Virus genome (UHGV): UHGV-0208736
Source of the DNA: a virus
Length of the DNA: 31,562 bases
Direction: 5' to 3' (one strand)
In this document: positions 2,239-25,364 of the stretch, piece by piece
How the letters are laid out: each line of letters opens with the position of its first letter
How positions within the stretch are numbered: the stretch's first letter is position 1
Translations under genes and position numbers: made by a program
The notes under the pieces: model-generated
The model's input: only the letters and a program-made list of their open reading frames with translations
What the model was told of the DNA's origin: nothing
The model's database searches: none

Positions 2239-2244
2239 AACTAA

Positions 2245-5019: not shown

Positions 5020-5049
5020 TTCTCAATTCCTTATATTGTTGGTGTAGGA

Positions 5050-5760: not shown

Positions 5761-5888
5761 TCCAGCACCCACAGATAAATTGCGATAAACATGCCAAATA
5801 CGGCAACCATCATGCCGTATTGACCCTCGTGACAGTAGACACCGGCGGCGAATCCAGCCAGTACTGCGATAATCAGTTTACTTAGCAT
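5757..5888 (-). CDS. unannotated 43-aa hydrophobic (membrane) peptide
   Basis: MLSKLIIAVLAGFAAGVYCHEGQYGMMVAVFGMFIAIYLWVLE; ATG at 5888 lies 8 nt inside the 3' end of the DNA polymerase gene with AGAGGT SD 7 nt upstream. Confidence 0.35.
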   Translation of the reverse strand: MLSKLIIAVLAGFAAGVYCHEGQYGMMVAVFGMFIAIYLWVLE

Positions 5889-8148
5889 AACGGTACACCT
5901 CTTCCCCGGCCCATGTTAGTGGGAACCCTTTGGCCCATTCAGGTAATGAGCATAACAGGTCGCCCATCTCTTTAACCGTGTACTCCGGTGTGTCTGGTGT
6001 TTCGGCGACACACTCATCGTGTACGTGAAGTACAATTGGGTAGCCCGCTGCCTCGACCGTCAGGAGTCCGTTGACCAGTAAATCACGGCACAACGCTTGA
6101 ATGATGTTTTCACACAATTTTCCGCCGTGTGTGTACAAAGTCGTCCACTGGCGGGTGGTCTGATTTTCGCCCTGGTATTTAATGCGAACGTTAGTTGTTA
6201 CGCGCCCATCCTCGTCGGTCTCTTTAGTGACGCTTAAACCTATACCAGGGTAGGACATGATGCGCCCAGACGGCAGTTCCACACACAACCACCAACCCGG
6301 CACAAAGTTACCCTGTCTGTCTTTCTCTTTAGTACGCCAGATGCGAATAGCCCTGTCGCCGTTAAGGCGTACTCTGGCCCCCGCCCAAAACTCTCGTCCC
6401 GGATTTCTGATTGCAGCAATCACCGAATCCTTAAGGTCGTTCCAGAATCTCACTGTTTCCGGATGGGCCTCGCGCCACATGCGCTTGATAGCGTCGCAAG
6501 TGCGCCAGACTTCCTTAGGCAACACGTAAGAGGCCCGTTCGTCCTTTTTACCAGGTTTTGGCGGCCGCTTAGCCTCCTGAATCCGCGCCCATTCATAGCC
6601 TCGGGCAGTGGCGGCCCATATATGGTCAGGGAATGTCCCCCGCATTGTCTCCGTCATTTTAAAGAGGTCCAGCCCATAAGTTTTAGCCATAGTCATGAAG
6701 GCCCCTACACCTCCCTCGTAGCCGAGGCCCAGCTCGCAACATTTCCCGACCTGTCGTAGGTCTTTACGGGTGGCTTTCAGCTCTATAGGATCCATGCCAA
6801 ACATCTTGCCCGCAGTGGCGCAATAAATATCAATCCCCGCGCGGAACGTCTCAAGGGCAGATGTCTCCCCCGCCGTCCAGGCTAACCCACGGCCTTCCAC
6901 GTTCGAGTAGTCGGCAACGAGTAACTTATTACCTTTTTCCGGGATGATGCAGCTGCGGACAGTCGAGGCCGTTAGCTTAGATACATCAAAACGGCGATGC
7001 GCCCGGCCCTTTAAAAGCAAATTGATGCCGAAGGATAGCGGGTTAAGCCTGCGGTTCCAGTCTTCGTCGGACTCCCACGGCTGGCGTACGAGTTTCTTTT
7101 CCTCGTTAGTCGGGTCGTCGTGGTAGTACCCACGCGACAGGTTCTGCGGCTGGAACCCTTTGCCCGCAAATCGTAAAGTGCGCTTTGCCCCACCGTACTG
7201 GATGCAACCACGGCGTCGTCCGTCTTTGGACCGTCCTAGCAGGAGCGGTTTATATTTTGTTGACGCCGTGGAGGCCGCGCCGAGGCGCATCTCAATGATT
7301 GTGCGCGCATCGTTAGGTAAGTCGTCGTCCTCTAGCAAACCTTCGAGCGTTGCTTTCTGCGCATTATAAATATTGTAGGCCGGTGCCAGTTCCCGAAGGA
7401 TTGGCAGGAAGTCTTTGCCCGTTAGCTTCCCGCCAAATTTCGCGCGGGCCTCGTTTTTTAGCTCTTGCTTGTGACGTTCAACTGCCGCGACCGCCGCCTC
7501 AGCAAGAGCCGTATCGACAAAGAAGCCTCGGTCGTTGATTAGCTGGTCCAGTTCCAGTACACGGTCTTCGAACTCAGAGTTACCCCAACGCGGCAGCTTA
7601 TGGAAGACCTCACGCATTGCAGTGATGTCGCTTACGGCGTACTTGATGAACAGCGCCCACTCGTCCGGGTGTGTTTCCGCGGTGTAGCGACGGATTTTGT
7701 AGTTCTTCGGCGTCGGTTTAGAGAAACGCTGAATCAGCGCCTTGCCCCGCTTATCTTTCGCGTTGTCCGCAGATACTCCCAGCACTTCGCATAATGCATC
7801 GAGTGAACCCGGCAGCGCGTGGCGAAACGCCCAAATCATCGTATCAATGGTGTTGCTTACCGGAATATCAAAACCCCAGCAGTGCTTCATGATGAGCCTA
7901 TCGAACATTAAAAAGTTATGGCCCACGATTTTCATACGTCCGCGCATAACATTACGGAGCGCCATGCGTAGGCTTATTGGCATTACTGGTTCGGAAGTGC
8001 AATCCCATACTTCTACTGGACCATCATCAACGGCATACGTACAAATTATAACCTCTGTCGTTGGGTGCTCCGCATACGCATACGACCCGACTTTCTTTAA
8101 GTCTGCTTCGGAGAATGTCTCGGTATCCAGGTATAATAAACTAGTCAT
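5878..8148 (-). CDS. DNA polymerase, family A, with N-terminal 3'-5' exonuclease domain
   Basis: 756 aa; Exo I motif YLDTETFS; polymerase motif A LLVADYSNVEGR; motif C VLHVHDECV; AAGGAA SD upstream of ATG 8148. Confidence 0.85.
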   Translation of the reverse strand: MTSLLYLDTETFSEADLKKVGSYAYAEHPTTEVIICTYAVDDGPVEVWDCTSEPVMPISLRMALRNVMRGRMKIVGHNFLMFDRLIMKHCWGFDIPVSNTIDTMIWAFRHALPGSLDALCEVLGVSADNAKDKRGKALIQRFSKPTPKNYKIRRYTAETHPDEWALFIKYAVSDITAMREVFHKLPRWGNSEFEDRVLELDQLINDRGFFVDTALAEAAVAAVERHKQELKNEARAKFGGKLTGKDFLPILRELAPAYNIYNAQKATLEGLLEDDDLPNDARTIIEMRLGAASTASTKYKPLLLGRSKDGRRRGCIQYGGAKRTLRFAGKGFQPQNLSRGYYHDDPTNEEKKLVRQPWESDEDWNRRLNPLSFGINLLLKGRAHRRFDVSKLTASTVRSCIIPEKGNKLLVADYSNVEGRGLAWTAGETSALETFRAGIDIYCATAGKMFGMDPIELKATRKDLRQVGKCCELGLGYEGGVGAFMTMAKTYGLDLFKMTETMRGTFPDHIWAATARGYEWARIQEAKRPPKPGKKDERASYVLPKEVWRTCDAIKRMWREAHPETVRFWNDLKDSVIAAIRNPGREFWAGARVRLNGDRAIRIWRTKEKDRQGNFVPGWWLCVELPSGRIMSYPGIGLSVTKETDEDGRVTTNVRIKYQGENQTTRQWTTLYTHGGKLCENIIQALCRDLLVNGLLTVEAAGYPIVLHVHDECVAETPDTPEYTVKEMGDLLCSLPEWAKGFPLTWAGEEVYRYAK

Positions 8149-8614
8149 GGCAATAAAATTCCTTATGCAGTTTTTCTCTTAATTTCTTTACCGCGCTTTC
8201 TGCTTCTTCAAGAGTTCCGTAGCTACCAGCATTGTAACTTTTGTAGTTAAAGTGTACCCGCCCATAAAATCGGTTGCCGTTTTTAACTACTCCCTTAACT
8301 CCCGTTCTAGCTCCCTTATTTTTAGCGTTTCGCACATTATCTGCGGTGGTTGCTTTCCTTAGGTTAGAAATCCTATTGTCTAACCTGTCTCGGTTTATGT
8401 GGTCAAGAGGTCCCTCGGGCCATTCACCGTACTCGAAAAACCAAGCAAGCCTGTGGGCCATGTAATATCTGCCCATATAAGGTATTCGCCAGTATCCACT
8501 ACTATTGATGCATCCTGCGATGTCTCCAGGTTTTCCTCGTCTGTACGTAGGTTGTATCCATGTGAATATCCCGGTTTCTCGGTTATAGCTAAGAAAATCT
8601 TTTATATGTTCCAT
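8141..8614 (-). CDS. HNH homing endonuclease with AP2-type domain (start taken at ATG 8614; the track start at 8638 is TTG)
   Basis: HNH core MAHRLAWFFEYGEWPEGPLDHINRDRLDNRISNLR; AP2-like GVKGVVKNGNRFYGRVHFNYKSYNAGSYGTLEEAESA; AT-rich relative to neighbours; stop overlaps polymerase start by 8 nt. Confidence 0.75.
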   Translation of the reverse strand: MEHIKDFLSYNRETGIFTWIQPTYRRGKPGDIAGCINSSGYWRIPYMGRYYMAHRLAWFFEYGEWPEGPLDHINRDRLDNRISNLRKATTADNVRNAKNKGARTGVKGVVKNGNRFYGRVHFNYKSYNAGSYGTLEEAESAVKKLREKLHKEFYCHD

Positions 8615-8626
8615 TCTGACTCCGGT

Positions 8627-8649
8627 AAAAAGGCCCAATGAAGGGCCTT
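8627..8649 (-). terminator. rho-independent terminator on minus strand after the SSB-like gene
   Basis: Minus-strand RNA: AAGGCCC-UUCAUU-GGGCCUU followed by UUUACC; 20 nt downstream of the TAA at 8669-8671. Confidence 0.45.
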
Positions 8650-8668
8650 AGTTAAATTGATTCATATA

Positions 8669-9307
8669 TTAGCGGCGGCGACGTTCGCGACGCGGTGCAG
8701 GTTCATCATCCTCAAGGTCGTTAAGGTCTACGGTAGCTCCGGCACCGCCGAATGCTTCGCCATCATCCTTAAAGCGAACACCGAGGAGTTCTACGCCGAG
8801 GTTTTTATAAGTTGAGTACCAATACACATCAACTACGATATTAGCGTAACAACCAGAATAAACTTCCTTACCTTCTACATCGTCACCTGCTTCGGTAAGG
8901 CCCTTGACTACACGCCCGCCGCGTTGGCACTGCACCTCACCCTCAGAAGTCGCGATCATAGGTTGCTTACGGCTCTTAGCCATGAAATACAAACCTTCCT
9001 CAAGCCCTTCAATCGGTGAATCACGCTGTGCGAGGTCGCGGAACGCACATTTATCTGCATGGTTTCCGAAGCCGAAGTTTTTTGACATCCACTTTTCGGC
9101 GGCAGAAGCACTACCTAACGCTTCAGTCATAACTTCAGTTACAGCGTCTTCAATTTTCTCAATTTGCGGGTCGTCTTTATCCAGATACGCTGTAAGCTGG
9201 TATTGGCCTTCTACTTGTTGCCCCTGACTATTTACACGGTCCGCTGCTTTCTTATAAACGTCTACCCATCCGATACGCACGTTGCTCAGTTTAACTTTGA
9301 TACCCAT
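8669..9307 (-). CDS. possible ssDNA-binding protein (T7 gp2.5-like / DUF2815-like), acidic C-terminal region
   Basis: 212 aa; N-terminus MGIKVKLSNVRIGWVDVYKK...GQYQLTAYLDKDD resembles the gp2.5-like SSB family pattern (from memory); C-terminus DLNDLEDDEP; GAGGAA SD upstream; first gene after promoter P2. Confidence 0.4.
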   Translation of the reverse strand: MGIKVKLSNVRIGWVDVYKKAADRVNSQGQQVEGQYQLTAYLDKDDPQIEKIEDAVTEVMTEALGSASAAEKWMSKNFGFGNHADKCAFRDLAQRDSPIEGLEEGLYFMAKSRKQPMIATSEGEVQCQRGGRVVKGLTEAGDDVEGKEVYSGCYANIVVDVYWYSTYKNLGVELLGVRFKDDGEAFGGAGATVDLNDLEDDEPAPRRERRRR

Positions 9308-9362
9308 ATCTCGATTCCTCAGTTTTCAGTTTACTCCGGGAACTGCCCGGCCAGTGATTAGA

Positions 9363-9392
9363 ACTATAATAGCTAACTATTCGGGTTGTCAA
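9363..9392 (-). promoter_or_regulatory. sigma70-type promoter P2 (minus strand): -35 TTGACA, 18-nt spacer, -10 TATAGT; core AACTATAATAGCTAACTATT (plus 9362-9381)
   Basis: Reverse complement reads TTGACA-N18-TATAGT; the core differs from P1/P3 only by inversion of the central 4 bp; located in the 89-bp intergenic gap upstream of the SSB-like gene. Confidence 0.5.
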
Positions 9393-9396
9393 CACT

Positions 9397-9570
9397 TTAT
9401 TTAAGTTTCTTCGGAACTACCTTATAAATATAGGGCTGCACCGCCTCATGCTTTGAGTTCTTCTCTTCTGCAATTTTGTCGGCGTCGGCGCGTTTAGCGT
9501 GAACAGAGACAATATCAAGTTCTTGAATAGAGTATCGGCGGTGATATCGCGTGAGAATATAAACCATCAT
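9397..9570 (-). CDS. hypothetical protein (57 aa from ATG 9570)
   Basis: MMVYILTRYHRRYSIQELDIVSVH...; strong SD GAGGAGGA 6-7 nt upstream; ATG overlaps stop of the exonuclease gene (ATGA). Confidence 0.45.
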   Translation of the reverse strand: MMVYILTRYHRRYSIQELDIVSVHAKRADADKIAEEKNSKHEAVQPYIYKVVPKKLK

Positions 9571-10808
9571 TCTAAATCCTCCTCTGTTACCTGATTCCAC
9601 TCAGGCCGTTTGTCGTCTGTCGTTGCGACACATGGTGCGCCAGGCTTACGGGTAATGAAGTCTTTCAGTTCTTCTTCCGGTATGACTTTAACCGCTTCGG
9701 TCGGCGTCATGAGCACTTCTTTAGTCAGCTTGTAACCGTATTTCTCGTATACCGCCTCTGCATCTTTCCATGCACGATTACCTGGGCGACCCTCAACCAG
9801 TTTGTACCCAGGCACTTTCTTACCGGAATGCAACGCGGCGGCCATAGCTTTTTCAACCTTGTCGATGTGCTGGCGCAGGAACGGCAACTTCTCATACTCA
9901 GCGACGAGTTGCTCTGGTGTCAGTTCCAGCACAAAGTTGTCCCCCAGTTCTTCCGCCAGTACAGAATTAACCGTCTTTGTACGCGCGGCGCACTGTTCTG
10001 AGAACCGGCACCACTGGCAGCCATCGACAGACGGCTTGAAGTCCGACGCTTTCAGGTTCTTCTTGCCACGGAAATAGGCGTCAAGCGCTAACAGCGCCCG
10101 TTTCTGTGCGAACTTAGCAAACAGTTCCAGACCTTCAACCGAGATGTCCCACTCCGAAGCGCCACCAGCGTACGGCTGGAAGATGACCAGACGAACGATT
10201 GTTATGTTATAACGTCTCTTGAGTCGGCGATAAACACCGAGAGCGTAAAGCATAAGCTGCTTGTTTTCTTTCGCTTCGACACGATGCCGTCCTGTTTTAA
10301 GGTCTCCGATGATGAGCATATGCCCGTCGGTGTTCGCCAGTTCCTGTACGGCAACAAGGTCAGCGGTTCCGAACGTCTCAACGCCTTCGTAGCCCGGATG
10401 CAATACCTCAGTAAGATTGACCCGCATTTCCAGCTTGGCGTAAGTCGCTACGTCGATAATCAGTTTGCAGTAGTCGGTGTACTTGCGCACCTGCTCAATC
10501 ATGTCCGCCGTAATCAGTACCGCGCCTTTCATCGGACTGATTAGCGCCTCAATCGGCCCTTTACCTTCATCCAGAACATAAGCACCAACTTCACGCTCTA
10601 ACGGCAGCGCAGTTCCGCGGATATAGGCGTTGAGATGTACCTCAGCTATGGTGTGCATAGCTGTGCCTAATACCGCAGCTTTACCGGACGTGTTAGGGAT
10701 ATCTTTTTCACAGGCCAGTGATGCTGGGCAGGTTAACCACTTTTTAGCACCGGATGGCGACAGTAAGGCGTGCACATCATTATTGCCGCCGCGTTCTTTT
10801 AAAATCAT
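9567..10808 (-). CDS. Cas4/RecB-like PD-(D/E)xK exonuclease with putative Fe-S cysteine cluster and C-terminal extension (start at ATG 10808; the track start at 10823 is GTG)
   Basis: N-terminal Cys (WLTCPASLAC) plus C-terminal C-x2-C-x5-C (CQWCRFSEQC); nuclease-like core IIGDLKTGRH...QLMLYALGVY; GGAG SD upstream; ATG overlaps stop of upstream gene. Confidence 0.6.
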   Translation of the reverse strand: MILKERGGNNDVHALLSPSGAKKWLTCPASLACEKDIPNTSGKAAVLGTAMHTIAEVHLNAYIRGTALPLEREVGAYVLDEGKGPIEALISPMKGAVLITADMIEQVRKYTDYCKLIIDVATYAKLEMRVNLTEVLHPGYEGVETFGTADLVAVQELANTDGHMLIIGDLKTGRHRVEAKENKQLMLYALGVYRRLKRRYNITIVRLVIFQPYAGGASEWDISVEGLELFAKFAQKRALLALDAYFRGKKNLKASDFKPSVDGCQWCRFSEQCAARTKTVNSVLAEELGDNFVLELTPEQLVAEYEKLPFLRQHIDKVEKAMAAALHSGKKVPGYKLVEGRPGNRAWKDAEAVYEKYGYKLTKEVLMTPTEAVKVIPEEELKDFITRKPGAPCVATTDDKRPEWNQVTEEDLE

Positions 10809-11077
10809 GCCCTGTTCTCCCACTGGTCTATTAAATGTCGTGTCTTATGGTCGCAATGTAAGGCCCAGCCATACATCGACTCGAAGACATAAAGGTCAGG
10901 CCTGGCGAAAGTCGTGCGCTTAATCTGCGACACGTGACGGCCTATATCTTTAGGTCGCGGCGCTTTGCCTAAGTACGCCATCTCTTCCATCTGGTGCGCA
11001 CCGGACGGCGCACGCAACAGCCATAGCGCCTCTGTGTTATCCCGACTGTCAACGGCGCGGTAGAGTTGGTAAATCAT
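10805..11077 (-). CDS. hypothetical early protein (90 aa)
   Basis: ORF preceded by conserved initiation cassette ACTGAGGGTCGGAATT-ATG. Confidence 0.45.
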   Translation of the reverse strand: MIYQLYRAVDSRDNTEALWLLRAPSGAHQMEEMAYLGKAPRPKDIGRHVSQIKRTTFARPDLYVFESMYGWALHCDHKTRHLIDQWENRA

Positions 11078-11088
11078 AATTCCGACCC

Positions 11089-11304
11089 TCAGTAGTACGG
11101 TGCGAATTCACCCTTAACGGCGGTACGTACGGACATAAGATTATGTTTTCTGTCCGGGTAATTATCCGCCCACACCAGATTATTATCGTAATCTAGAACG
11201 CCGTACCAACATCCGTTTAATACGAAAAATCGTTGTTCACCCGTGGTTGCCGCGCTTATTTCCACAACGATTTGCTCATTTATCACTTTATATACGTTAC
11301 ACAT
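11089..11304 (-). CDS. hypothetical early protein (71 aa)
   Basis: ORF preceded by conserved initiation cassette ACTGAGGGCCGGAATT-ATG. Confidence 0.45.
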   Translation of the reverse strand: MCNVYKVINEQIVVEISAATTGEQRFFVLNGCWYGVLDYDNNLVWADNYPDRKHNLMSVRTAVKGEFAPYY

Positions 11305-11322
11305 AATTCCGGCCCTCAGTTT

Positions 11323-11346
11323 GTTGCCCTCACGTATGAGGGCAAC
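11323..11346 (-). other. stable intergenic RNA stem-loop (10-bp stem, 4-nt loop) without U-tract
   Basis: GTTGCCCTCA-CGTA-TGAGGGCAAC perfect inverted repeat between the acidic early gene and the next gene; followed by AAACUGAGGG rather than a U-run on the minus-strand RNA. Confidence 0.45.
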
Positions 11347-11359
11347 ATAAGTTAAGTAG

Positions 11360-11830
11360 TTATTCTTCTTCGAAATACTTGTTCTTGATTGCCGTCAGGC
11401 GTTCAAGATATTCTGCAAGGTCTTCATCTTTAATCGCGGCAATCTTCATCTTCTTACCGGTGAACTCTTCCAGCAGTTCATCAGAATCATCGCACGCAGC
11501 ATCGCTTGGGCCCTCGTTAATCGCATCGTCGATAGCCTGAATCTGGTCACGCAGAGACTGGTAATCGACTTCTTCCTTCTCTTCTTCCGGCTCTGGCGCT
11601 GGCTCCTCTACTTTAGCTTTACGAGGCTTGCGTTTCGGCTTCTCTTCTTCTGCGGGTTTAGTGTCGACGATGTCTTCACCTTCGACTGGGATTTCTTTTG
11701 TTGCTTCTTTTGCAACAGTAGGCTCGATTGTTGCAGTTTCCGCAACGACAACCTGTTTTGCACTGTTCGCCGCAATCAGTTCGTGGGCAACTACGAAACG
11801 TTCCAGTAATTTTAAGAATTGGTCTAACAT
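11360..11830 (-). CDS. highly acidic early protein (156 aa), first gene of the early operon; candidate DNA-mimic / anti-restriction or host-takeover factor
   Basis: Very Glu/Asp-rich (EEEKPKRKPRKAKVEEPAPEPEEEKEEVDYQ...DDSDELLEEF...KDEDLAEYLER); strong SD GAGGAGAG; directly downstream of promoter P3. Confidence 0.5.
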   Translation of the reverse strand: MLDQFLKLLERFVVAHELIAANSAKQVVVAETATIEPTVAKEATKEIPVEGEDIVDTKPAEEEKPKRKPRKAKVEEPAPEPEEEKEEVDYQSLRDQIQAIDDAINEGPSDAACDDSDELLEEFTGKKMKIAAIKDEDLAEYLERLTAIKNKYFEEE

Positions 11831-11861
11831 TTGTTTCTCTCCTCTCGTTTGGTATGGGCTA

Positions 11862-11890
11862 ACTATAATAGTTAGCTATTCACATGTCAA
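11862..11890 (-). promoter_or_regulatory. sigma70-type promoter P3 (minus strand): -35 TTGACA, 17-nt spacer, -10 TATAGT; core AACTATAATAGTTAGCTATT (plus 11861-11880)
   Basis: Reverse complement reads TTGACA-N17-TATAGT; 20-bp core identical to P1; about 30 nt upstream of the early operon start codon. Confidence 0.55.
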
Positions 11891-11934
11891 TGGGCTTTTC
11901 TAAAATAATTAATATGGTACTATTCACATATCAA
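11876..11934 (+). promoter_or_regulatory. candidate plus-strand promoter (TTCACA-N16-TAAAAT) with two 15-bp direct repeats CTATTCACAT(G/A)TCAA as putative operator sites
   Basis: Repeats at 11876-11890 and 11920-11934 (14/15 identical, 44 bp apart); repeat 1 overlaps the -35 of both divergent promoters; repeat 2 lies between the predicted TSS and the SD of the HTH gene. Confidence 0.35.
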
Positions 11935-11954
11935 CTGACTAAGGAGTAATTGAC

Positions 11955-12170
11955 ATGCAACCATCTGAACTAGGCATCCGTGTAGAACAACGCCGTAAAG
12001 AACTCGGCCTCTCCCAGCGCCGTCTGGCTGTCCTGGCTGGCGTTTCCCAGGGCGCGATTAACCAGCTGGCACTCGGTGTAACCCAGGACGTCCGCCCGGC
12101 AACGCTGTTTAAACTGGCGGAAGTGCTGGAAGTAGATGCCAAGTGGCTGGCGTTCGGTGAAGGGGCTTAA
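11955..12170 (+). CDS. Cro/C1-type (XRE family) helix-turn-helix transcriptional regulator
   Basis: 71 aa; RKELGLSQRRLAVLAGVSQGAINQLALG is a canonical XRE HTH; SD AAGGAG 8 nt upstream; only plus-strand gene inside the minus-strand module. Confidence 0.75.
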   Translation: MQPSELGIRVEQRRKELGLSQRRLAVLAGVSQGAINQLALGVTQDVRPATLFKLAEVLEVDAKWLAFGEGA

Positions 12171-12186
12171 CGCCCCCTTTCTTTTT
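12162..12186 (+). terminator. rho-independent terminator after the HTH regulator gene
   Basis: GGGGC-TTAAC-GCCCC hairpin (stop codon within loop) followed by CTTTCTTTTT. Confidence 0.5.
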
Positions 12187-12188
12187 AC

Positions 12189-14450
12189 CTATTCCAAATC
12201 TTCCTCGGTTACTATCAGCATCTCATTCGGTTCGTATATTGTCTTCGGAATCTTGTTATCGTTTATGCCCCACGGCAACCGGTATTGCTTAGGTATAGGC
12301 CTGTTGTTGTTATCCAGACCTGAGACGATAATCCCGGCCTCGTGCATCTCCTCCAGTTTCTTTCGAAGGTCGTTATTAGCATTAATTGGTACGCCGTAAC
12401 TATCTTCTTTCGCCGCTTTGACGATAGCTGACATAGAGAACCCTCGTTTATCGTCACCCTGCTCCTGCAATTTACCCAATGCGTAAATAACCGTAGCCTC
12501 TTTGGTGTCCAGTTTCTCGAACTGGCCTACCTTTTCTTTAACGGCTTCCTTCTGTTCGTCGGTCAGACCTTCTACTTTCTTCACGAAGACAGAGAATGCG
12601 TTGAAGTTAACAAAGACATCAATATGCGGATTTCCTGCGTCAAAATCGCGTACATCATCACTACTATACCCTTCCGGAAGACCCATGAAGTTGTGAGTTG
12701 GTTCTTTCTTTTCTGGCGGCTCCGCTATCTGAATCTTCTGTATTACGAACCCTCTGGCTTTTTGCCGTTCTCCGTTTCGGTTCTTTATGTGGTACAGGTT
12801 TATCTCTAAGTTATTGTCGTTGTCCGGCTTATGCAGGAACATCCCGTTGTCGATGGAGTTGTGGAAATCACTACCACCCTTCGGCATCATGCCGTTCTCG
12901 GATGGTACTGTTTCGTCGATGTTTTTAGTCGGGTGCACCATAGCGCCTACCGCGGCGTTAAGCGTCGACGCTATTTCGTTAAGCGCCTGCGCCGCCTCTT
13001 TCATCGACCTGTTGTCGTTCTCGTCAAAACCAGGTATGCAAGTTTGCAGGGTATCAAACGTAACCTTTACAATTTTCTCTTCACCGGCAACACGACGCAT
13101 CATTCTCACCGCCTGGCGGCGCCACACCTCATCGAGTAAGTTACACCCTTCCGCGACACAATCGATGATGTGCAAGCGGTCAAGGCTATCGCCGAGGGCA
13201 ATCTGTAAAGATTTTTTATGCCTCTCGAACGACTGCGCACCTTCTCCAGCGAAAATGAACGCATGCCCTTCAGCAACCTCTGCCCCGCCGAACGCATATC
13301 TTTTTTCGGCAGCAATAGCGGCGTCAATCGCCATACTAAATGTTGACTTACCAGTGTGGGACTTTGCACAAATGTAGAATGATTCGTTAGTCTGCATAAG
13401 ACCGTCCACTACGGAGTAAGCAGGTTCTTTTTCTACTTCCGGCTCGTCTTCAAGGTCTTCAAGCGTGCAAGTTACAGGCTCCTCGTTCTCTGTGCGGTGC
13501 AGTTCTTCAATATCTTCATCCGGTAAATCAGGCAGAGCCGCACGGATGCTATTAATACTGATAGGTTGCTTGTCTACGTTAAGCTCGTCCGGAAGACCGC
13601 ACATACGCAGGGCCAAATGCTGCCGACGGTTTAGCTCAGTGCAAGCGCCATTGTTTGTATGCTGGCAGACAAAGCGCACTTCTTTACCGTCAAGCATGAT
13701 GCTTGTGGAGCCTTTGCCGGTATGCAGATGTTCGTTAGGGCATGGAACTTCGTACCCGCGCCCGGAAGATAAAGCGTCAAGGCCAAGCTCCGCTTCGCAG
13801 AAATGCGCTATATCAGCGTTAAGCCCATGCTCATCGGCAGCAAGTGTCTTAGCTTCACGTTTACGCAGCCCCATCTCTTCGGCTTTCTTGATGTACCGCT
13901 CCGCACGGATAACGCGCCCTTCAGTAACAGTTATCTTTGACTCTTTATGAGGCAGGTAGATAAGGCGGTTGCCGTCTTCGGTGCAGTGGTCGCGCAACGC
14001 TTCGTCTATTTCTAACTCCGCACAAATAGCACGTTGCACCATCCATGCATCGTTAGAGTTAAATGGAGTGCGGGCAGGTACGAGAACGCGGAAAGCGTAG
14101 TCACCGTTTTTACACGCGTGCTGGTGCGACGCCGTTGTGTGCAGAATATTGAAGAACGTCGCGTTCTTGAATTTGCGGGTAAGGTCGCGGTACTGAGTAC
14201 GGTTGAGATGGTCAAAGTCGAACTTAACCACACTATCTTCCAGAATCGCGTTCTTACGGCGACCCCCAACAGGTGCAATTGCTTTCTGCTTAATCTTGGC
14301 AGCGTCGTACTCTTCCTTAGACCACGACGGATCCACGGATAAACGCTTGGATGTATCGCAGACATACTCTACGAACTGCTCCAGCGGCATTTCACGAGCT
14401 ACAGGGTTTTTATCGAATGTGTTGCGCAGTGTCGCAAAAACAATATTCAT
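12189..14450 (-). CDS. DNA primase-helicase-like replication protein: archaeo-eukaryotic primase (AEP)-type N-terminal domain plus P-loop NTPase domain
   Basis: 753 aa; AEP-like motifs KFDFDH (DxD) and TTASHQH (sxH); Walker A AKSHTGKST; Walker-B-like LHIID. Confidence 0.6.
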   Translation of the reverse strand: MNIVFATLRNTFDKNPVAREMPLEQFVEYVCDTSKRLSVDPSWSKEEYDAAKIKQKAIAPVGGRRKNAILEDSVVKFDFDHLNRTQYRDLTRKFKNATFFNILHTTASHQHACKNGDYAFRVLVPARTPFNSNDAWMVQRAICAELEIDEALRDHCTEDGNRLIYLPHKESKITVTEGRVIRAERYIKKAEEMGLRKREAKTLAADEHGLNADIAHFCEAELGLDALSSGRGYEVPCPNEHLHTGKGSTSIMLDGKEVRFVCQHTNNGACTELNRRQHLALRMCGLPDELNVDKQPISINSIRAALPDLPDEDIEELHRTENEEPVTCTLEDLEDEPEVEKEPAYSVVDGLMQTNESFYICAKSHTGKSTFSMAIDAAIAAEKRYAFGGAEVAEGHAFIFAGEGAQSFERHKKSLQIALGDSLDRLHIIDCVAEGCNLLDEVWRRQAVRMMRRVAGEEKIVKVTFDTLQTCIPGFDENDNRSMKEAAQALNEIASTLNAAVGAMVHPTKNIDETVPSENGMMPKGGSDFHNSIDNGMFLHKPDNDNNLEINLYHIKNRNGERQKARGFVIQKIQIAEPPEKKEPTHNFMGLPEGYSSDDVRDFDAGNPHIDVFVNFNAFSVFVKKVEGLTDEQKEAVKEKVGQFEKLDTKEATVIYALGKLQEQGDDKRGFSMSAIVKAAKEDSYGVPINANNDLRKKLEEMHEAGIIVSGLDNNNRPIPKQYRLPWGINDNKIPKTIYEPNEMLIVTEEDLE

Positions 14451-14575
14451 TTCTTTTTCTCCGCACGTTCTAAGGCTTCCTGCATACGACGCATTGCGCG
14501 GTTCATCTTTACCGGTGCGAAGAAATCAGCGCCGTGTTTCTGGCGGCGTAGCTGTGGAACTATTAACTTCGTCAT
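14447..14575 (-). CDS. unannotated 42-aa basic peptide (MTKLIVPQLRRQKHGADFFAPVKMNRAMRRMQEALERAEKKK)
   Basis: AAGGA SD upstream of ATG 14575; TGA overlaps primase ATG (ATGA); below track cutoff. Confidence 0.35.
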   Translation of the reverse strand: MTKLIVPQLRRQKHGADFFAPVKMNRAMRRMQEALERAEKKK

Positions 14576-14625
14576 TGTATAATCCTTGTGCTTACTTTGA
14601 TGATTTGTACTTTAACCCCGACGTT

Positions 14626-14859
14626 CTAGCGTTGGGGTTTCTTTTGCCTACGTGCAGCATTAATCCACTCTCCTTCGCTCTGGTAGAAACTGCAATCAAG
14701 AATATCCTCTATAGAAAATTTAACTATTTTAGTGGGTCCACAAAAGTTATAAGGGAAAAGTTCTACATAACACCCATCGTCAGTTATATTTGACGCAATC
14801 TTGAAATAATATTTAACGCTGCCGTCTTCACGGAAGCTACAACCCATACGCCCAATCAT
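14626..14859 (-). CDS. hypothetical protein (77 aa), AT-rich gene
   Basis: ORF with ATG overlapping stop of the upstream HTH gene; markedly lower GC than flanking genes. Confidence 0.45.
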   Translation of the reverse strand: MIGRMGCSFREDGSVKYYFKIASNITDDGCYVELFPYNFCGPTKIVKFSIEDILDCSFYQSEGEWINAARRQKKPQR

Positions 14860-15026
14860 TTCACGTTCTCCTTAATCCACGCTTCAACTTTATTACGGTC
14901 AAATGTTCCCGGCATCCGGCGGCCCATTACTTTAACGCTGCAATCAGGAAACTTTCCACTCTTAATCCAGTTATTAATTGTCTGACGCGTCACCCCGATA
15001 CGTTCTGCAACTTCATTGATAGTCAT
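14856..15026 (-). CDS. unannotated AlpA/excisionase-type helix-turn-helix regulator (56 aa), first gene of the primase operon
   Basis: MTINEVAERIGVTRQTINNWIKSGKFPDCSVKVMGRRMPGTFDRNKVEAWIKENVK; HTH plus conserved W matching the AlpA/Xis-like HTH_17 pattern; SD AGGAGA 5 nt upstream; below track cutoff. Confidence 0.6.
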   Translation of the reverse strand: MTINEVAERIGVTRQTINNWIKSGKFPDCSVKVMGRRMPGTFDRNKVEAWIKENVK

Positions 15027-21079: not shown

Positions 21080-22246
21080 ATGGCTACAACTCCTTTTAAG
21101 GGCGCGAATACCGCGCAATTCTATGTGGCGGAAACTACCCCGGGCGTAGCACCGGCTAACCCGGTATGGTCGCCGTTGCGTAACACTGGCGGTGTTCCTG
21201 CGGTAACCCGCGATGCGCTAACTTCCAACGAACTGGACGGCAGCCGTGAAACTACATCCATCCGAACCGGTAACAAGCAGGTTAGCGGGGAGTATGCCAT
21301 CGAGCTTAGCTCACGTAGCCAGGATGATTTCCTCGCGGGCGCGATGACTTCTACGTGGCAGGCTGGGGTAGAGATTACGGGTGCTGAAATTACGGTTGCC
21401 CCAGCAGGTAAAACATTTACCCGCGCTGCCGGTAGCTTCATTACTGACGGTGTAGAAGTTGGCGACCTGATTGCGTTCACCGACTTAACTGGCGACAACG
21501 CAAAACCGTTTATCGTGACCGAGGTTTCTGCTCTTGTAGTTACGGGTGCTGGCATTCAGCACACGCTGACAGCAGAGACTGTAACCACCGACGCTAAAAC
21601 CGGTGACAAACTGGAAACCGGTAACGCATGTAAGACGTTCTCCATCCTGACGTGGTTCAAAGGTCAGTGCGGCAACCCGGACGCGTACATGCTGACCAAA
21701 GGTGTCGAAATCTCTGGCTTCACCATAGAGCAAGCGGTCAACGCGATGGTTACGGGTAGCTTCCCGTTCATCGGCTTGAGCCAGGAGATTCTTTCTGCAC
21801 CGCCAGCGGGTTCTGACTTCTCGCAAGTAACCTTCACCGATGAGCCGTTCTCGTCTGTAGATGTGTCTGTGTTCGACGGTTCTACGCCGTTACGTTGCGA
21901 CACGCTTACCATCACCAACGACAACGGCGCATCCGCGCAGTTTGAACTCGGCAACAGTAGCGTGGCGTTCGTGGAACGTGGTCGCGCGGCTAACACCTTC
22001 TCCATCTCAGGCAAGCTGTACGACATGGCGATGATTCAGAAGTTTATCAACGAGCAGCAGGTAGAGATTAACTCTATTCTGGCGGGGGTAAACGGTGCTA
22101 TGTCTTTCAGTTTGAAACGTGCGGAGCTCACGGCGGTTACGCCAGAGATTGGCGGACCGGAGTCAATCACTCAAAGCATAGAAGGACAGTCCACAGGTAA
22201 CCAGTACCAGTCGTCTATTGTTATTCAGCGCATCACCTACGCATAA
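21080..22246 (+). CDS. major tail (tube) protein
   Basis: 388 aa from ATG 21080 (SD AAGAGG 8 nt upstream); followed by strong terminator; precedes chaperone and tape-measure genes. Confidence 0.5.
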   Translation: MATTPFKGANTAQFYVAETTPGVAPANPVWSPLRNTGGVPAVTRDALTSNELDGSRETTSIRTGNKQVSGEYAIELSSRSQDDFLAGAMTSTWQAGVEITGAEITVAPAGKTFTRAAGSFITDGVEVGDLIAFTDLTGDNAKPFIVTEVSALVVTGAGIQHTLTAETVTTDAKTGDKLETGNACKTFSILTWFKGQCGNPDAYMLTKGVEISGFTIEQAVNAMVTGSFPFIGLSQEILSAPPAGSDFSQVTFTDEPFSSVDVSVFDGSTPLRCDTLTITNDNGASAQFELGNSSVAFVERGRAANTFSISGKLYDMAMIQKFINEQQVEINSILAGVNGAMSFSLKRAELTAVTPEIGGPESITQSIEGQSTGNQYQSSIVIQRITYA

Positions 22247-22252
22247 AACTAA

Positions 22253-22276
22253 GGCCCCTTTCGGGGCCTTTTTCTT
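22253..22276. terminator. bidirectional rho-independent terminator between major tail gene and the minus-strand accessory island
   Basis: GGCCCC-TTTC-GGGGCC followed by TTTTTCTT (plus); on minus strand the same hairpin is followed by UUAGUUUUAU. Confidence 0.6.
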
Positions 22277-22505
22277 ACTCATCAATATTACTCCTGTACT
22301 CCCGTAACTTCTCCAGACTTTCAATTGCTTCTGCTAAGTCGGTTCCGGTGTCCTTGTGTCCCCGCAAGCCCATGCACAATAGCTTCTTTAATGCGTGCTG
22401 TAATGCTGGGTCTCGGATATCGAAGGCACGGAGCACATCATAAACGTCTACAGTCATGGTGCTGCCGTGAGTATTTGTCATTGTGCGGTTGTATTTTGAA
22501 GTCAT
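22275..22505 (-). CDS. hypothetical protein (76 aa), last gene of accessory island
   Basis: ORF; start codon choice uncertain (Met1, Met9 or Met17), none with a strong SD. Confidence 0.4.
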   Translation of the reverse strand: MTSKYNRTMTNTHGSTMTVDVYDVLRAFDIRDPALQHALKKLLCMGLRGHKDTGTDLAEAIESLEKLREYRSNIDE

Positions 22506-22514
22506 CTCTAAGCC

Positions 22515-23015
22515 CTATTTATAACCGTTGTTGAATGTTGTCAGCCCGTGGTTTATGTGGAATTTATTGGCTACGGACATGTAAATTCTTTCCGCAAAAG
22601 CGTCCTCTATTCTGTCAAATGTTTTACTAATCTGCTTGCCATTGACAACGGCATACGCTCTCCACTTAGTTTTTCCTTTCCGCGCCACGCCAGTAACTCC
22701 AGAGGTATTATCTTTGCGCCTTTTCACGTTAACCATGTTGTCCCTTCTTGATTTGCAGGACAGGTTTTCAATTCTGTCATCACATGTATCATGGTTAGTG
22801 TGGTCTATGACAAATCCTTTCGGAATCTTACCTGAGAACATCTCATACACCACCCTCGACCTTTTAAACTTACGGTTGCCAAACATGACGTACCAATAGC
22901 CGTTTTTACACAAACTCCCAGCCACATCACCTACATTCACATCGTTACGGCGACACGATTTTACTTTCCAGTATAGGACGCCGTTTTTGTAGCTAAAAAC
23001 TTCGCTCCAGTCCAT
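22515..23015 (-). CDS. HNH homing endonuclease with AP2-type domain (third copy)
   Basis: HNH core GFVIDHTNHDTCDDRIENLSCKSRRDN; AP2-like GVTGVARKGKTKWRAYAVVNGKQISKTFDRIEDAFAERIY. Confidence 0.75.
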   Translation of the reverse strand: MDWSEVFSYKNGVLYWKVKSCRRNDVNVGDVAGSLCKNGYWYVMFGNRKFKRSRVVYEMFSGKIPKGFVIDHTNHDTCDDRIENLSCKSRRDNMVNVKRRKDNTSGVTGVARKGKTKWRAYAVVNGKQISKTFDRIEDAFAERIYMSVANKFHINHGLTTFNNGYK

Positions 23016-23030
23016 CCTTTCACCTGTATT

Positions 23031-24185
23031 TTAGTATGTTGATTTGGGGTTCATATCTCGCAGCATTTCAACAGGTATACTTATACGGGACACCTCGCCG
23101 TATCGTTTATGGTATGTAATCACATTTGCGCTCCTGCCGGAATAATAGCCGCCTTTACTAGAATACTCATCTTTAGCCGCTAATGTCTGGTGTTGCTCAA
23201 CAATTAGAAGATTAGTCTCTTTAACCGCCCTGTGATGAAGGTGGCCCGTATGGACATATGTGAACTTACACTGCCCGTACATCTCACGATACTTACCAAT
23301 TATAGACTGCTCTACCCTAGTAAAGTTAGAGCAATGCCCGTGGTGCGCCGAAATCATACAATCCCCGAACTTGTACGCATAATACGGCGATACCTCCCGG
23401 TTAACCTCAACACGAGGCTCGTTTGTGTACACCTCATAGAACATCTCTCTGAGCCACAGAGAAGAACTAAGGTCGTGGTTTCCCTCGCAAATAAGAAGTT
23501 TAACCTTCTTGTGTTTTCGCAGGCACAGCGAGACCGCCAGCTTGATAACCTTAACGGCTGTACGTATCATTTTAAACAGGCGACTATCCGCTGAAAGAAT
23601 ATGGCCGCTCATAGGGGTCATTGCCTTCATGCCATCGTAGTGCATCTGGTCCCCTAAGAAGTTAATGATACACTCCCCGCTCTGCGGACTCATACAAACC
23701 GCACTGTTGAACCAGTCAACTGCGAGAGATTCCGCAATTGTGGTGTCGTAATCATCTCCGCCTTCTTCTTGACACGCCAGCATACCGATGTGATGGTCCG
23801 TTATTGTGTAAAGATTTAATAAGTCGTCATCTGTGTCATTTTTAAGCAAAGTGGCCGGTTTATACTTAGGTAAATCTTTTTTCATCTCGTCCACAACGGC
23901 TTTCATCAATTCGACCTGACGTTCAGCGTCGGTGTCAGTCTTAACCCATTGCAGCTTAGTGTTGCCGAACTCGTCCACAAGTGACGACGTCCCTTTAATC
24001 TTGTATCCATCTGGCACAAGGTGACTAACGTCTCGCCCGTGACCTACGCCTTTCTTTGCCAGCTTCGCCTTACGGATACGAATAACGCGGTCTGAGATGC
24101 CGTATTTACGGGCTATATCGATATTCTTCATCCCGGCATTCAATTCTTCCTGTAACTGCTCATCGGTTATTTTCTTCTGGGCCAT
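23031..24185 (-). CDS. HTH-fused calcineurin-like metallophosphoesterase (Mre11/SbcD- or class III phosphodiesterase-like motif set)
   Basis: 384 aa; N-terminal HTH IDIARKYGISDRVIRIRKAKL; complete phosphoesterase motif series TDHH (DxH), FLGDQMHYDG (GD), ICEGNHD (GNHD), SAHHGH, HTGHLHH (GHxH); SD GAGGA. Confidence 0.65.
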   Translation of the reverse strand: MAQKKITDEQLQEELNAGMKNIDIARKYGISDRVIRIRKAKLAKKGVGHGRDVSHLVPDGYKIKGTSSLVDEFGNTKLQWVKTDTDAERQVELMKAVVDEMKKDLPKYKPATLLKNDTDDDLLNLYTITDHHIGMLACQEEGGDDYDTTIAESLAVDWFNSAVCMSPQSGECIINFLGDQMHYDGMKAMTPMSGHILSADSRLFKMIRTAVKVIKLAVSLCLRKHKKVKLLICEGNHDLSSSLWLREMFYEVYTNEPRVEVNREVSPYYAYKFGDCMISAHHGHCSNFTRVEQSIIGKYREMYGQCKFTYVHTGHLHHRAVKETNLLIVEQHQTLAAKDEYSSKGGYYSGRSANVITYHKRYGEVSRISIPVEMLRDMNPKSTY

Positions 24186-24223
24186 GCTTGCGTCCTCGTG
24201 TTTAGGATTTGTCCTATACTAGC

Positions 24224-24415
24224 TCACTTCTCTTTAACGTTCGAGTTGCAAGCCCAGATTAAAATAAATACCCACGGCAGCAGAACCCAGCCAAGAAACA
24301 GATTAGCAGTGAATATCGCTAATTTCGCTTTATGGTCACGGAAGTATGCAACCAGGAAAGGCGCGAAATAAGCGAGCAGTGCAAACAGAATTAAGGAAAC
24401 TGGTAAACTGGACAT
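24224..24415 (-). CDS. superinfection-immunity-like small membrane protein (63 aa from ATG 24415)
   Basis: MSSLPVSLILFALLAYFAPFLVAYFRDHKAKLAIFTANLFLGWVLLPWVFILIWAC; two TM segments around a basic loop and an NLFLGW motif resembling the Imm/superinfection-immunity family (from memory); SD AAGGGG upstream of Met29 of the track ORF. Confidence 0.55.
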   Translation of the reverse strand: MSSLPVSLILFALLAYFAPFLVAYFRDHKAKLAIFTANLFLGWVLLPWVFILIWACNSNVKEK

Positions 24416-24432
24416 TTTAAACCCCTTCATTG

Positions 24433-24489
24433 TTGGTGTAAGTGAATAGTACCCTATTATATTGGGGTGCGCAAGTAATGTGATAGAAT
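24433..24489. promoter_or_regulatory. divergent promoter region: plus-strand TTGGTG-N16-TATTAT and TTGGGG-N16-TAGAAT; minus-strand TATAAT (plus 24456-24461) for the accessory island
   Basis: Seen directly; located in the 167-bp gap between the island and the tail chaperone gene; the minus -35 (ATCACA) is weak. Confidence 0.35.
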
Positions 24490-24582
24490 AATTTTGCACC
24501 TAGTGTCGCACACGAAAAGCGGGTGGTTCCCGTCTGGTGCATTTACCGTTAACCTGTAACCTCTTAACCAAAGGATTAAAGA

Positions 24583-24999
24583 ATGAAACTTTCAGATTTT
24601 TATTTCGAAGAGAAAGCACTGGTAGGCAAGAAGATGCCGATTCTGCTTCCAAACGGCGAAGACTCAGGGGAGTGGCTTAACGTTGTAAACCCTGATGCGG
24701 ATGTCGCCGTTAAAGCGGGGCGCGCTTTCATTATTGCGTACCGTCGCGGACTGGCGCGTTTCGAAGAACTGGAAAAAGCCGCCAAAGATTCCGGCGACTA
24801 TACTGAATATAACCTGGCGGTCAACGAACTGGCGGAAGACCTCAACCGGCAACTTGCAGCAGAAGTCGTAAACGGCTGGAGCTTTGATGAGCCTTTCTCT
24901 AAGGAAGCGTTTAACAAATTGCTGGACCAGTTCAAGGCCTTAGGCACACAGGTAGCAGCGTTCCATAACGCCGAGCGCAAAGCATTACAGGAAAAGTAG
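24583..24999 (+). CDS. tail assembly chaperone (gpG-like)
   Basis: 138 aa acidic protein directly upstream of tape measure gene; SD AAGGA; ends at slippery GGAAAAG-TAG. Confidence 0.55.
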   Translation: MKLSDFYFEEKALVGKKMPILLPNGEDSGEWLNVVNPDADVAVKAGRAFIIAYRRGLARFEELEKAAKDSGDYTEYNLAVNELAEDLNRQLAAEVVNGWSFDEPFSKEAFNKLLDQFKALGTQVAAFHNAERKALQEK

Positions 25000-25364
25000 A
25001 CGCGCTGTACAGGTTCGCCACCTACGAGTTTGTGGATAAGCATAAAATCAGAGAGTTTGATTCTATAGCTGACGGGCACGAACAGGCGCTTATCGCGATG
25101 GGTGTAATCGATAAGAAAAAACGTGCAGCGCGACGGGGTGGGCCAGAATGCCCGCCCCTTTTTATATCCACCTTTGAAACGTACTGTGACATTAAGTTTA
25201 CGCGACACGTGCGCGAGGACGCTGTAGTATTGTTTGCAAGAGAATCCGTTACGTGGCAAGACCTGAAAGCCTATCTCGATGTTACGCAAAAACAGCTTAG
25301 CCTGTTCGAGATAGACATTATCATGGGCTTAGAAGCAATCTTTGAAGGTAGAAATCATGGCTGA
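24969..25364 (+). CDS. tail assembly chaperone frameshift extension (gpT-like portion of a G-T fusion), -1 frame
   Basis: The -1 frame is open from 24969 to 25364, overlapping the last 10 codons of the G gene; no good in-frame ATG/SD of its own (the track start is GTG at 25032). Confidence 0.45.
   Translation, partial: RRAQSITGKVDALYRFATYEFVDKHKIREFDSIADGHEQALIAMGVIDKKKRAARRGGPECPPLFISTFETYCDIKFTRHVREDAVVLFARESVTWQDLKAYLDVTQKQLSLFEIDIIMGLEAIFEGRNHG

Follow-up and report, generated by a model that had tools for sequence, protein, structure and literature searches.

The minus-strand gene cassette between the tail tube and tail assembly chaperone genes of UHGV-0208736: a probable local version of a conserved Guernseyvirinae arrangement

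Siphophages of the Jersey and Kaguna types (Guernseyvirinae) are known to carry a short block of genes antisense to their tail operon, flanked by the tail tube gene on one side and the tail assembly chaperone (TAC) genes on the other. In the Jerseyvirus vB_SenS-Ent1 (Ent1) this minus-strand block consists of a Rha/Ant gene followed by genes for a 76-amino-acid protein (p76), an HNH endonuclease, a metallophosphoesterase (MPE) and a superinfection-immunity protein (Sii). Bas74 has p76, MPE and Sii; vB_EcoS_GZMU_E2010 has three small open reading frames (ORFs; one is p76), MPE and Sii; and K1ind1 has a deoxynucleoside monophosphate (dNMP) kinase, a polynucleotide kinase (PNK)-type phosphatase, MPE and Sii. 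A homologous protein, called 'DNA repair exonuclease', is persistent in Drexlerviridae (508/522), where the gene immediately following it is most often PNK or dNMP kinase and HNH genes occur there sporadically (PMC13164509). Here we describe the corresponding locus of the virus genome UHGV-0208736, of which a stretch of 31,562 nucleotides was analysed (the window). We conclude, with a probability of about 75%, that the region is a local version of the conserved antisense cassette found in the hypervariable tube/TAC slot of these phages, that is, a promoter-driven sii-MPE-HNH-p76 unit bearing a patch acquired by co-conversion. The features of the locus are as follows.

22251–22270, both strands: bidirectional intrinsic-terminator hairpin, predicted to end the tail-tube transcript (plus strand) and the cassette transcript (minus strand)
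22275–22505, minus strand: p76, 76 amino acids (aa), last cassette gene, of Kagunavirus-type sequence
22506–23950, no strand: Jerseyvirus-derived patch of ~1.4 kb, covering HNH and the 3′ three-quarters of the MPE gene in a Kagunavirus backbone
22515–23015, minus strand: HNH homing endonuclease, 166 aa, at the MPE/p76 junction (PF13392, phrog_99, PADLOC)
23031–24185, minus strand: helix-turn-helix (HTH)-metallophosphoesterase (MPE), 384 aa (phrog_704, invariant motifs, predicted fold)
24224–24415, minus strand: Sii, superinfection-immunity membrane protein of 63 aa, promoter-proximal (PF14373)
24456–24484, minus strand: predicted sigma-70-like cassette promoter, ATCACA-17-TATAAT
24481–24489, plus strand: extended –10 promoter-like element TGATAGAAT, facing the TAC genes, read from sequence
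24495–24541, plus strand: three-stem RNA junction, int-alpA-like, in the 5′ leader of the TAC/tape-measure operon and at the right-hand boundary of the slot

Over 60–77% of its first 21 kb, the window is ~89–90% identical to known Kagunaviruses; its genome is of that type, and by its sequence the source is a Kagunavirus-type E. coli phage. In the ORF table four consecutive minus-strand ORFs (22275–22505, 22515–23015, 23031–24185 and 24224–24499; 76, 166, 384 and 91 aa, the 91-aa one counted from a GTG start) are flanked on the left by the plus-strand tail tube gene (PF18906, 3.9e–38) and on the right by two plus-strand TAC genes (PF08748 and PF23812) and then the tape-measure gene. An initial annotation, made from the sequence alone, had proposed that four minus-strand genes break the plus-strand late operon between the tail gene and the chaperones, and the ORF table and Pfam flanks agree; its description of a self-contained cassette antisense to this operon is likewise supported by the layout, with a terminator and promoter-like sites at the flanks. 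The right end of the island, placed there at 24499, has to be corrected: the coding part ends at 24415, where the ATG of Sii is preceded at 5–6 nt by a GAAGGGG ribosome-binding site. The K1ind1 orthologue is annotated at the identical length of 192 nt, and the gene most likely starts at this ATG and gives a product of 63 aa.

The cassette is a known arrangement made from known families and deposited in hundreds of Guernseyvirinae genomes, rather than a candidate new system; the tube-to-TAC region matches 391 phage records. The suggestion that this is the likeliest place in the window for an undescribed function did not survive the comparison, since Ent1 has the same four genes, 168 phage records, nearly all of Salmonella phages, match the HNH and MPE DNA at ~93% identity, and MPE is found in all Kagunavirus-level loci examined.

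To place the locus among its relatives, we used the tube protein to retrieve 65 IMG/VR loci and sorted them by what lies between tube and TAC. Wherever the tube protein was at least 87% identical and both anchor genes were found, the interval has a minus-strand cassette containing MPE. The place after MPE is taken either by p76 (~20 loci) or by the phosphatase and dNMP kinase pair (~17 loci), never by both. Among relatives with 66–81% tube identity the slot is empty in four loci (L052 and L060–L062, gaps of 93, 94, 140 and 174 bp; tube protein 66–70% identical), so that the tube and chaperone genes do lie adjacent elsewhere at this depth. Others hold a single small membrane or secreted protein gene in 343–492 bp, and the remaining ones have 0.8–2 kb of unrelated small genes. 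In Serratia phage Eta the slot codes for a single secreted protein of 111 aa, flanked by annotated divergent promoters and bidirectional terminators; this phage shares the tail module, and no MPE was found in the 37.4 kb examined. In two outgroups with a homologous tube gene, the tube leads directly to chaperone-like genes with no island. From these sequence comparisons we conclude that the tube/TAC slot is a hypervariable accessory hotspot in which MPE is fixed within the Jersey/Kaguna lineage. Presence or absence among close relatives, a mark of morons, thus differs within the locus: it varies for the slot, for HNH and for p76 versus the kinase pair, and MPE is always present in Kagunavirus and Jerseyvirus. 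The expression 'inserted accessory island' fits the slot, which is empty or holds other cargo in distant relatives, but not an insertion peculiar to this phage, MPE being fixed in the lineage.

The same survey bears on whether the four genes might encode parts of the virion or of tail assembly that have escaped recognition on the opposite strand. The sole support for this is their position inside the tail gene block. Eta, L052 and L060–L062 have the same tail module without these genes; the MPE homologue of Drexlerviridae and Dhillonvirus adjoins lysis or DNA-metabolism genes, outside the tail block (PMC13164509); and the domain content of the cassette is enzymatic or membrane-associated. A structural role is barely credible. 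As to the refuting condition named in the initial annotation, relatives do carry the same genes at the same position, but their annotations are non-structural.

The longest cassette protein matches phrog_704 ('DNA repair exonuclease') at 5e–150 and starts with a LuxR/resolvase-like HTH at about aa 8–45, followed by a binuclear metallophosphoesterase domain. Residues D130, H132, D179, N236–H237, H282–H284 and H315/H317 are invariant in an alignment of 15 homologues (59–93% identity), and all five metal-binding motifs (DxH, GD, GNH[D/E], H, GHxH) are present. The predicted fold is a beta-sandwich metallophosphoesterase with an HTH. No significant Pfam, NCBIfam, PADLOC or PDB sequence match was obtained, and the assignment is made because of the invariant catalytic motifs and predicted fold, not the Pfam score. 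On these grounds, which include a model, the initial label of an HTH-fused metallophosphoesterase is correct even though the Pfam threshold is missed; its sub-family and substrate are not assignable. The name 'DNA repair exonuclease' given by PHROGs and GenBank lacks support from any of the tests, and, as regards an Mre11/SbcD label, no gene for a partner ATPase of Rad50/SbcC type was found in the cassette of any surveyed locus.

Full-length MPE homologues occur in 2,009 phage records, from Guernseyvirinae, Drexlerviridae, Dhillonvirus, T1-like Klebsiella phages and Vibrio phages. A scan of 185,579 bacterial genomes, one per species, gave homologues at only 5 loci, several of which look like phage contigs; hence there is no bacterial defence-island context for MPE to study. 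The partners of MPE in Guernseyvirinae are the same set as in Drexlerviridae (PNK, dNMP kinase and HNH). Taken together, MPE has the distribution of a lineage core gene in virulent phages of the Jersey, Kaguna and T1-like groups, and not that of a moron.

Since its partners are a 3′-phosphatase and a dNMP kinase, and since the protein carries a DNA-binding HTH, MPE most likely acts as a nuclease or phosphodiesterase on DNA ends or host DNA, which is the weakest step of our reading. A role in RNA can also be considered, in which MPE would be a 2′,3′-cyclic phosphodiesterase that, with the PNK-type phosphatase and the kinase, heals tRNAs after cleavage by host anticodon nucleases. Activity as a 2′,3′-cyclic phosphodiesterase has been described for lambda phosphatase and for the phosphoesterase domain of Clostridium thermocellum Pnkp, both of MPE type (PMC2190708), and a PNK-family phosphatase (PF25109, phrog_415) lies directly downstream of MPE in K1ind1 and ~17 surveyed loci. 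The P-loop partner in K1ind1, however, scores as a dNMP kinase (phrog_139, 5.8e–46) and not as a polynucleotide 5′-kinase, the cassette has no RNA ligase, the window lacks both partners, and the N-terminal HTH points to DNA. We consider RNA repair quite improbable. A more specific form of the DNA-directed role starts from the statement that the T1/TLS gene for host-DNA degradation is not identified (PMC11447400). The HTH-MPE might be that host-DNA-degrading nuclease of T1-, Jersey- and Kaguna-like phages, feeding the PNK-type 3′-phosphatase and dNMP kinase, and the slot would then be a hotspot where HNH genes shuttle its alleles between genera on different hosts (Salmonella to E. coli). We put this forward as a speculative and rather doubtful proposal built on sequence.

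The second gene from the left is the mobile part of the cassette. Its product scores 58.2 bits against PF13392 (HNH_3; cut-off 24.8, 6.1e–16) and matches phrog_99 (3.5e–50) as well as the PADLOC model 'homing endonuclease', with the motif ...VIDHTNHD...IENL...RRDN... intact. It had been called an HNH-AP2 endonuclease; the HNH part of this name stands, with PF13392 above its cut-off, and the AP2 part does not, as Pfam gave no AP2 match even at E ≤ 10 and the resemblance (residues ~100–150) is by eye only. The gene is present at ≥95% aa identity in 117 phage records versus 162 records with the matching MPE allele. In Bas74 no HNH is found at the junction and the MPE stop codon overlaps the p76 start codon. 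Salmonella phage FSL SP-101 (L078, about 1982–2077) retains a scar, namely the last 78 nt of HNH, unannotated, between p76 and MPE; here HNH was lost by deletion between two GAAAG repeats (microhomology). In all, three unrelated HNH genes are seen at or beside the MPE/p76 junction in the surveyed loci. Two of these, 39% and 28–31% identical to the window HNH, lie at the junction or just downstream of p76 (at the same junction in L022, 8428–8901, L030 and L075; also in L017 and L021). The junction seems to have been invaded repeatedly by HNH genes, and, judged by sequence, the window HNH is probably a selfish homing endonuclease that forms the mobile part of the cassette.

HNH did not come alone. 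Identity to Jerseyvirus Ent1, taken per 100-nt window, is 88–95% from about 22500 to about 23900 and 50–67% in the flanks, which are in turn 84–95% identical to Kagunavirus genomes; in the patch itself these genomes give no match at the DNA level. On the left, the junction falls on the p76 start codon. At the other end the MPE gene is chimeric, with residues 1–97 identical to the Kagunavirus type and residues 98–384 following the Jerseyvirus type. We note separately that codons ~41–97 of MPE (23895–24065) encode protein that is nearly identical in the Jersey and Kaguna types, against ~60% in the rest, and coincide with the right-hand recombination junction. The same ~1.4-kb patch is present in BUCT823 (L003) and in IMG/VR locus L019. 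Judging by these sequence comparisons, a 1.4-kb segment with HNH and the MPE catalytic domain has moved from a Jerseyvirus-type into a Kagunavirus-type genome. About 900 bp of donor-type MPE sequence accompanies HNH, with almost none on the p76 side, which fits homing and ordinary recombination alike; homing with one-sided co-conversion explains the patch well, and ordinary recombination also would.

At the promoter-proximal end, Sii scores 45.5 bits against PF14373 (Imm_superinfect; cut-off 27.9, E = 7.1e–12) and matches phrog_1039 'immunity to superinfection' at 3.4e–23. Kyte-Doolittle hydropathy gives two transmembrane segments at about residues 3–25 and 32–58 of 63. The proposed superinfection-immunity-like membrane protein is borne out by the family score and the two hydrophobic helices. 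By analogy, Sii is most likely a two-helix inner-membrane protein of the T4 Imm type that blocks DNA entry by superinfecting phages, a function assigned because of its family membership. In the 65-locus survey the place next to the promoter is usually taken by a small envelope protein of one of three unrelated kinds. In ~10 loci, about 1/4 of the surveyed Kagunavirus-level loci, Sii is replaced by an unrelated signal-peptide/lipoprotein-like protein of 108–122 aa (phrog_14165). We also observed that this place is filled by unrelated small envelope proteins more generally: Sii, phrog_14165, phrog_5031 (62–90 aa, single-helix membrane) and Eta_0060, with example genes at L014 6853–7179, L025 10434–10763, L046 2341–2709, L040 8267–8467 and L009 5695–6030. 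These four kinds of protein are candidate superinfection-exclusion genes.

The last cassette gene, p76, matches phrog_2452 (2.4e–36), with only part of the profile covered. It is 100% identical to the Bas73 and BUCT823 proteins and 90.8% identical to the Jerseyvirus type, and its family has 768 matching phage records. An AlphaFold2 model (predicted local distance difference test score 88) shows a beta-hairpin and three helices. No Pfam family was matched at E ≤ 10, Foldseek against PDB gave nothing below E = 1, and a profile search of PDB sequences gave nothing either. PHROG matches covering only the C-terminal third of longer profiles raised the idea that p76 is a truncated form of the K1ind1 ATPase/dNMP kinase; this was rejected, because BLASTP gives no similarity to K1ind1 gp19 and the protein forms a full-length stand-alone family in 768 records. 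A possible likeness to DUF3310/SaV-like proteins was dropped for lack of a Pfam match at the same threshold. The names 'ATPase' and 'phosphodiesterase' on some family members appear to be annotation carry-over. Elsewhere the p76 domain forms the N-terminal part of a 405-aa 'DNA ligase domain protein' in Aeromonas phage AVP3 (L077, 2477–3694) and a 111-aa stand-alone 'ATPase' in Shigella phage Sd1 (L076, 3998–4333); the domain appears to be small, mobile and unreliably annotated. In the cassette, p76 is, according to the model, a small alpha/beta protein that alternates with the phosphatase/kinase pair at the same position.

These properties allow us to weigh the proposal that the region is a moron or defence/anti-defence cargo, with MPE hydrolysing cyclic-nucleotide immune signals, for example, or p76 acting as an anti-defence protein. 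The slot does vary between lineages and is empty in some relatives. The cassette has its own putative promoter and terminator, which for this mark of morons are consensus-level sites that are present and conserved, and its GC content is low (45.2% vs 50.4% for the window, within the lowest 1% of same-size sliding windows). In addition, p76 has no fold match and the roles of MPE and p76 are assigned from sequence or models. Against this, Sii, MPE and p76 were unmatched by PADLOC defence models at E ≤ 1, the sole match being 'homing endonuclease' for HNH, and NCBIfam returned nothing meaningful for any of the four proteins. MPE is persistent in all Kagunavirus/Jerseyvirus-level loci examined and in the Drexlerviridae genomes mentioned above, it has a DNA-binding HTH, and its usual neighbours are nucleotide or nucleic-acid enzymes. 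The identical four-gene cassette is already present in >100 deposited genomes. On balance, the cargo proposal made in the initial annotation is unlikely. As to published work, the BASEL paper (PMC11990801) and the Jerseyvirus genomics paper (PMC8425127) contain no functional data on the cassette genes, and the latter describes the superinfection-immunity gene of lytic Jerseyviruses as having no established role. Phage seszw from a genome-reduction study (PMC9825161) was considered as a source on gene essentiality and set aside; it is an unrelated Skatevirus.

Both ends of the cassette carry putative transcription signals. On the left, the hairpin at 22251–22270 has a perfect 8-bp stem (6 G-C pairs) with a TTCG loop and is called as a terminator on both strands, in agreement with the bidirectional terminator initially placed at 22253–22276; a T-run follows on the plus strand and a weaker one on the minus strand. 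Rho-independent terminators are annotated on both strands at the homologous hairpin of Ent1 and at the equivalent site of Eta, and 22244–22277 of the window is 100% identical to the Ent1 copy. Sub-threshold Rfam matches to Atu_C8 and Histone3 at 22196–22292 fall on this hairpin and were dismissed. On the right, the minus-strand site ATCACA-17-TATAAT (24484–24456) has 10/12 consensus matches and a predicted transcription start near 24449, which coincides with the start guessed before. The TATAAT hexamer (TATTATA on the plus strand) is retained in most Kagunavirus loci, with single-base variants in some. Back-to-back with this promoter, and overlapping its –35, lies TGATAGAAT on the plus strand. 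The pattern TGnTAGAAT is kept in Kagunavirus loci, with the n position variable; the promoter scan did not report the element because its –35 hexamer is weak. From its placement, we infer that it would start a rightward transcript at the foot of stem P1 of the RNA described below. A different repeat, TTGCAACTAATTTGTTT, is found just upstream of the RNA element in Eta-like contigs (L046 ~3135–3155, L048, L049 and L065) and in L009 (6079–6095). In phage Eta it is annotated as a repeat recurring elsewhere in the genome, and it may be a phage-specific promoter or operator.

The 167-nt spacer from Sii to the first TAC gene is conserved in Kagunavirus loci and contains a structured RNA. Rfam RF02996 (int-alpA) matches 24493–24557 on the plus strand over its full length, at 29.3 bits (gathering score 35.8, E = 0.0023), and L046 at 28.5 bits, also below the gathering score; the other relatives tested gave no match at E ≤ 0.1. 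The sequence of the outer stem is wholly exchanged among relatives, yet pairing persists (TGCGCC/GGCGCA, CCTCGG/CCGAGG, GTCGTGA/TCACGAC, CGTCGGC/GCCGACG). Searching with a covariance model gave a single copy in each of 52 loci, and wherever a TAC match could be placed this copy immediately preceded the TAC gene. In the covariance-model alignment 96.8% of cells are paired vs 82.2% in shuffles, and the covariation score is 0.362 vs 0.118 in shuffles (reached by 0/500; slid controls at most 0.093). As this alignment is fitted to the model, its figures lean towards structure, and the safeguard is the independent RNAalifold result on a plain MAFFT alignment, which gives the same three stems with compensatory changes in 10/14 pairs. 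G-U pairs in stem P3 favour the plus strand. The element is also present in the empty-slot loci L052, L061 and L062, the L061 copy starting ~10 nt after the tube stop codon; it is therefore an ancestral tube-TAC intergenic element, with the cassette lying between the tube terminator and the RNA. Both the UGGUU hairpin loop and the AACC repeats further downstream, close to the ribosome-binding site, show no variation, and the two could base-pair. One natural guess is that the element acts in cis on expression of the chaperone and tape-measure genes. Two side observations concern the surrounding operon. The frames of the TAC ORFs at 24583–25364 (plus strand) fit a –1 programmed frameshift (G/GT), and the K1ind1 orthologues are annotated as a joined coding sequence. 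GC skew is negative throughout 1500–15000, which suggests a long minus-strand (early/replication) gene block upstream of the plus-strand late operon.

Several observations weigh against the reading of the locus as a promoter-driven cassette with a DNA-directed MPE and a co-converted patch. The window MPE is below the Pfam threshold (13 bits vs a cut-off of 27; PF00149/PF12850), the K1ind1 orthologue being also under the cut-offs (21.5 and 18.9 bits), and PDB sequence searches with the single sequence and with a profile find no MPE chain, only a weak FixJ HTH match. The kinase and phosphatase partners are absent in the window, so a salvage role would need to work without them. The region has 5 promoter-like sites vs a shuffled mean of 4.0, which is not above chance, and the consensus match of the minus-strand promoter taken alone is therefore weak evidence; the call is supported by its conservation across Kagunavirus loci. 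The patch could stem from ordinary homologous recombination, with no HNH cleavage required, because both of its junctions are in stretches conserved between the genera (the p76 start and MPE codons ~41–97). Finally, identity to known Jerseyviruses is only ~93%, so that the donor is unsampled or the event is old.

Overall, we suggest the following sequence of events for the conserved cassette. The promoter near 24456–24484 would drive sii, then HTH-MPE, HNH and p76, and transcription would stop at the hairpin that also ends the tube transcript. The plus-strand element TGATAGAAT would restart rightward transcription into the structured RNA leader and the TAC and tape-measure genes. Sii would exclude the DNA of superinfecting phages. 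MPE may process DNA ends or break down host DNA for nucleotide salvage, a role proposed because sister phages have a PNK-type 3′-phosphatase and a dNMP kinase directly after MPE. The patch would result from repair of an endonuclease-induced break with co-conversion of one flank, the break presumably being made by this HNH.

The locus illustrates clearly how a tail operon can harbour a cargo slot, with contents ranging from nothing to ~3 kb and a first gene that usually encodes a small envelope protein. This helps in annotating superinfection-exclusion genes and in deciding where to insert DNA when engineering Kagunavirus chassis phages. The locus also documents that the catalytic domain of an enzyme and a homing endonuclease moved jointly between phage genera of Salmonella and of E. 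coli. The divergent int-alpA relative is placed in the TAC/tape-measure leader, which makes the function of the motif open to reporter-fusion tests. The HTH-MPE is very widespread in phages and deserves biochemical work, given its unsupported 'DNA repair exonuclease' label.

Among described systems the closest is Ent1 gp21–gp24 (NC_019539; with equivalents in SETP3/SE2-like Salmonella phages and in BUCT823), which has the same four genes in the same order, strand and position, with the bidirectional terminator. The protein lengths equal those of the window (76, 166, 384 and ~60 aa), and identities to the window proteins are 91% for p76, 98% for HNH, 93% for MPE and 73% for Sii. The Kagunavirus BUCT823 gives 100, 98, 98 and 73%, respectively. 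Ent1 differs in the Rha/Ant gene (gp20), an addition absent from the window that lies between tube gene and p76 and has a terminator of its own; in the window, the flanks, p76, first 97 MPE codons and Sii are of Kagunavirus-type sequence. Conversely, the Kagunavirus K1G/K1ind1 cassette (ORF17–20) shares the slot, strand, promoter region, Sii and N-terminal part of MPE with the window. Its MPE, however, is a different catalytic allele (~60% aa identity overall, no DNA-level match across the catalytic part), and the window has p76 and HNH in place of the kinase and phosphatase genes.

For the individual components the counterparts are more distant. The Drexlerviridae (T1-like) exonuclease is also a full-length HTH-MPE, 35–48% identical in T1-like phages and Dhillonvirus, with the same downstream partners (PMC13164509). 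Its gene points forward and neighbours holin/endolysin or DNA-metabolism genes, whereas the window MPE is antisense inside the tail block. Sii resembles T4 Imm and other PF14373 proteins in its family score above the cut-off and as a small two-helix membrane protein, while the Guernseyvirinae members are known from sequence alone. The window HNH shares with free-standing phage HNH_3 homing endonucleases of T-odd and T1-like phages the HNH_3 domain, intergenic insertion, presence/absence polymorphism, decay scars and co-transfer of flanking sequence. Its own cleavage and homing are predictions from sequence, in which no AP2 domain was detected. The leader RNA has the three-stem junction of int-alpA (RF02996) and matching junction nucleotides (CUAG, CGAAAAGCGGG...CCCG and CUGG), with a score below the gathering threshold. 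It differs from the Rfam family, which has a U-rich 3′ tail and is named after its integrase/alpA neighbourhood, in having no such tail and in its location in the tail-chaperone leader of virulent phages.

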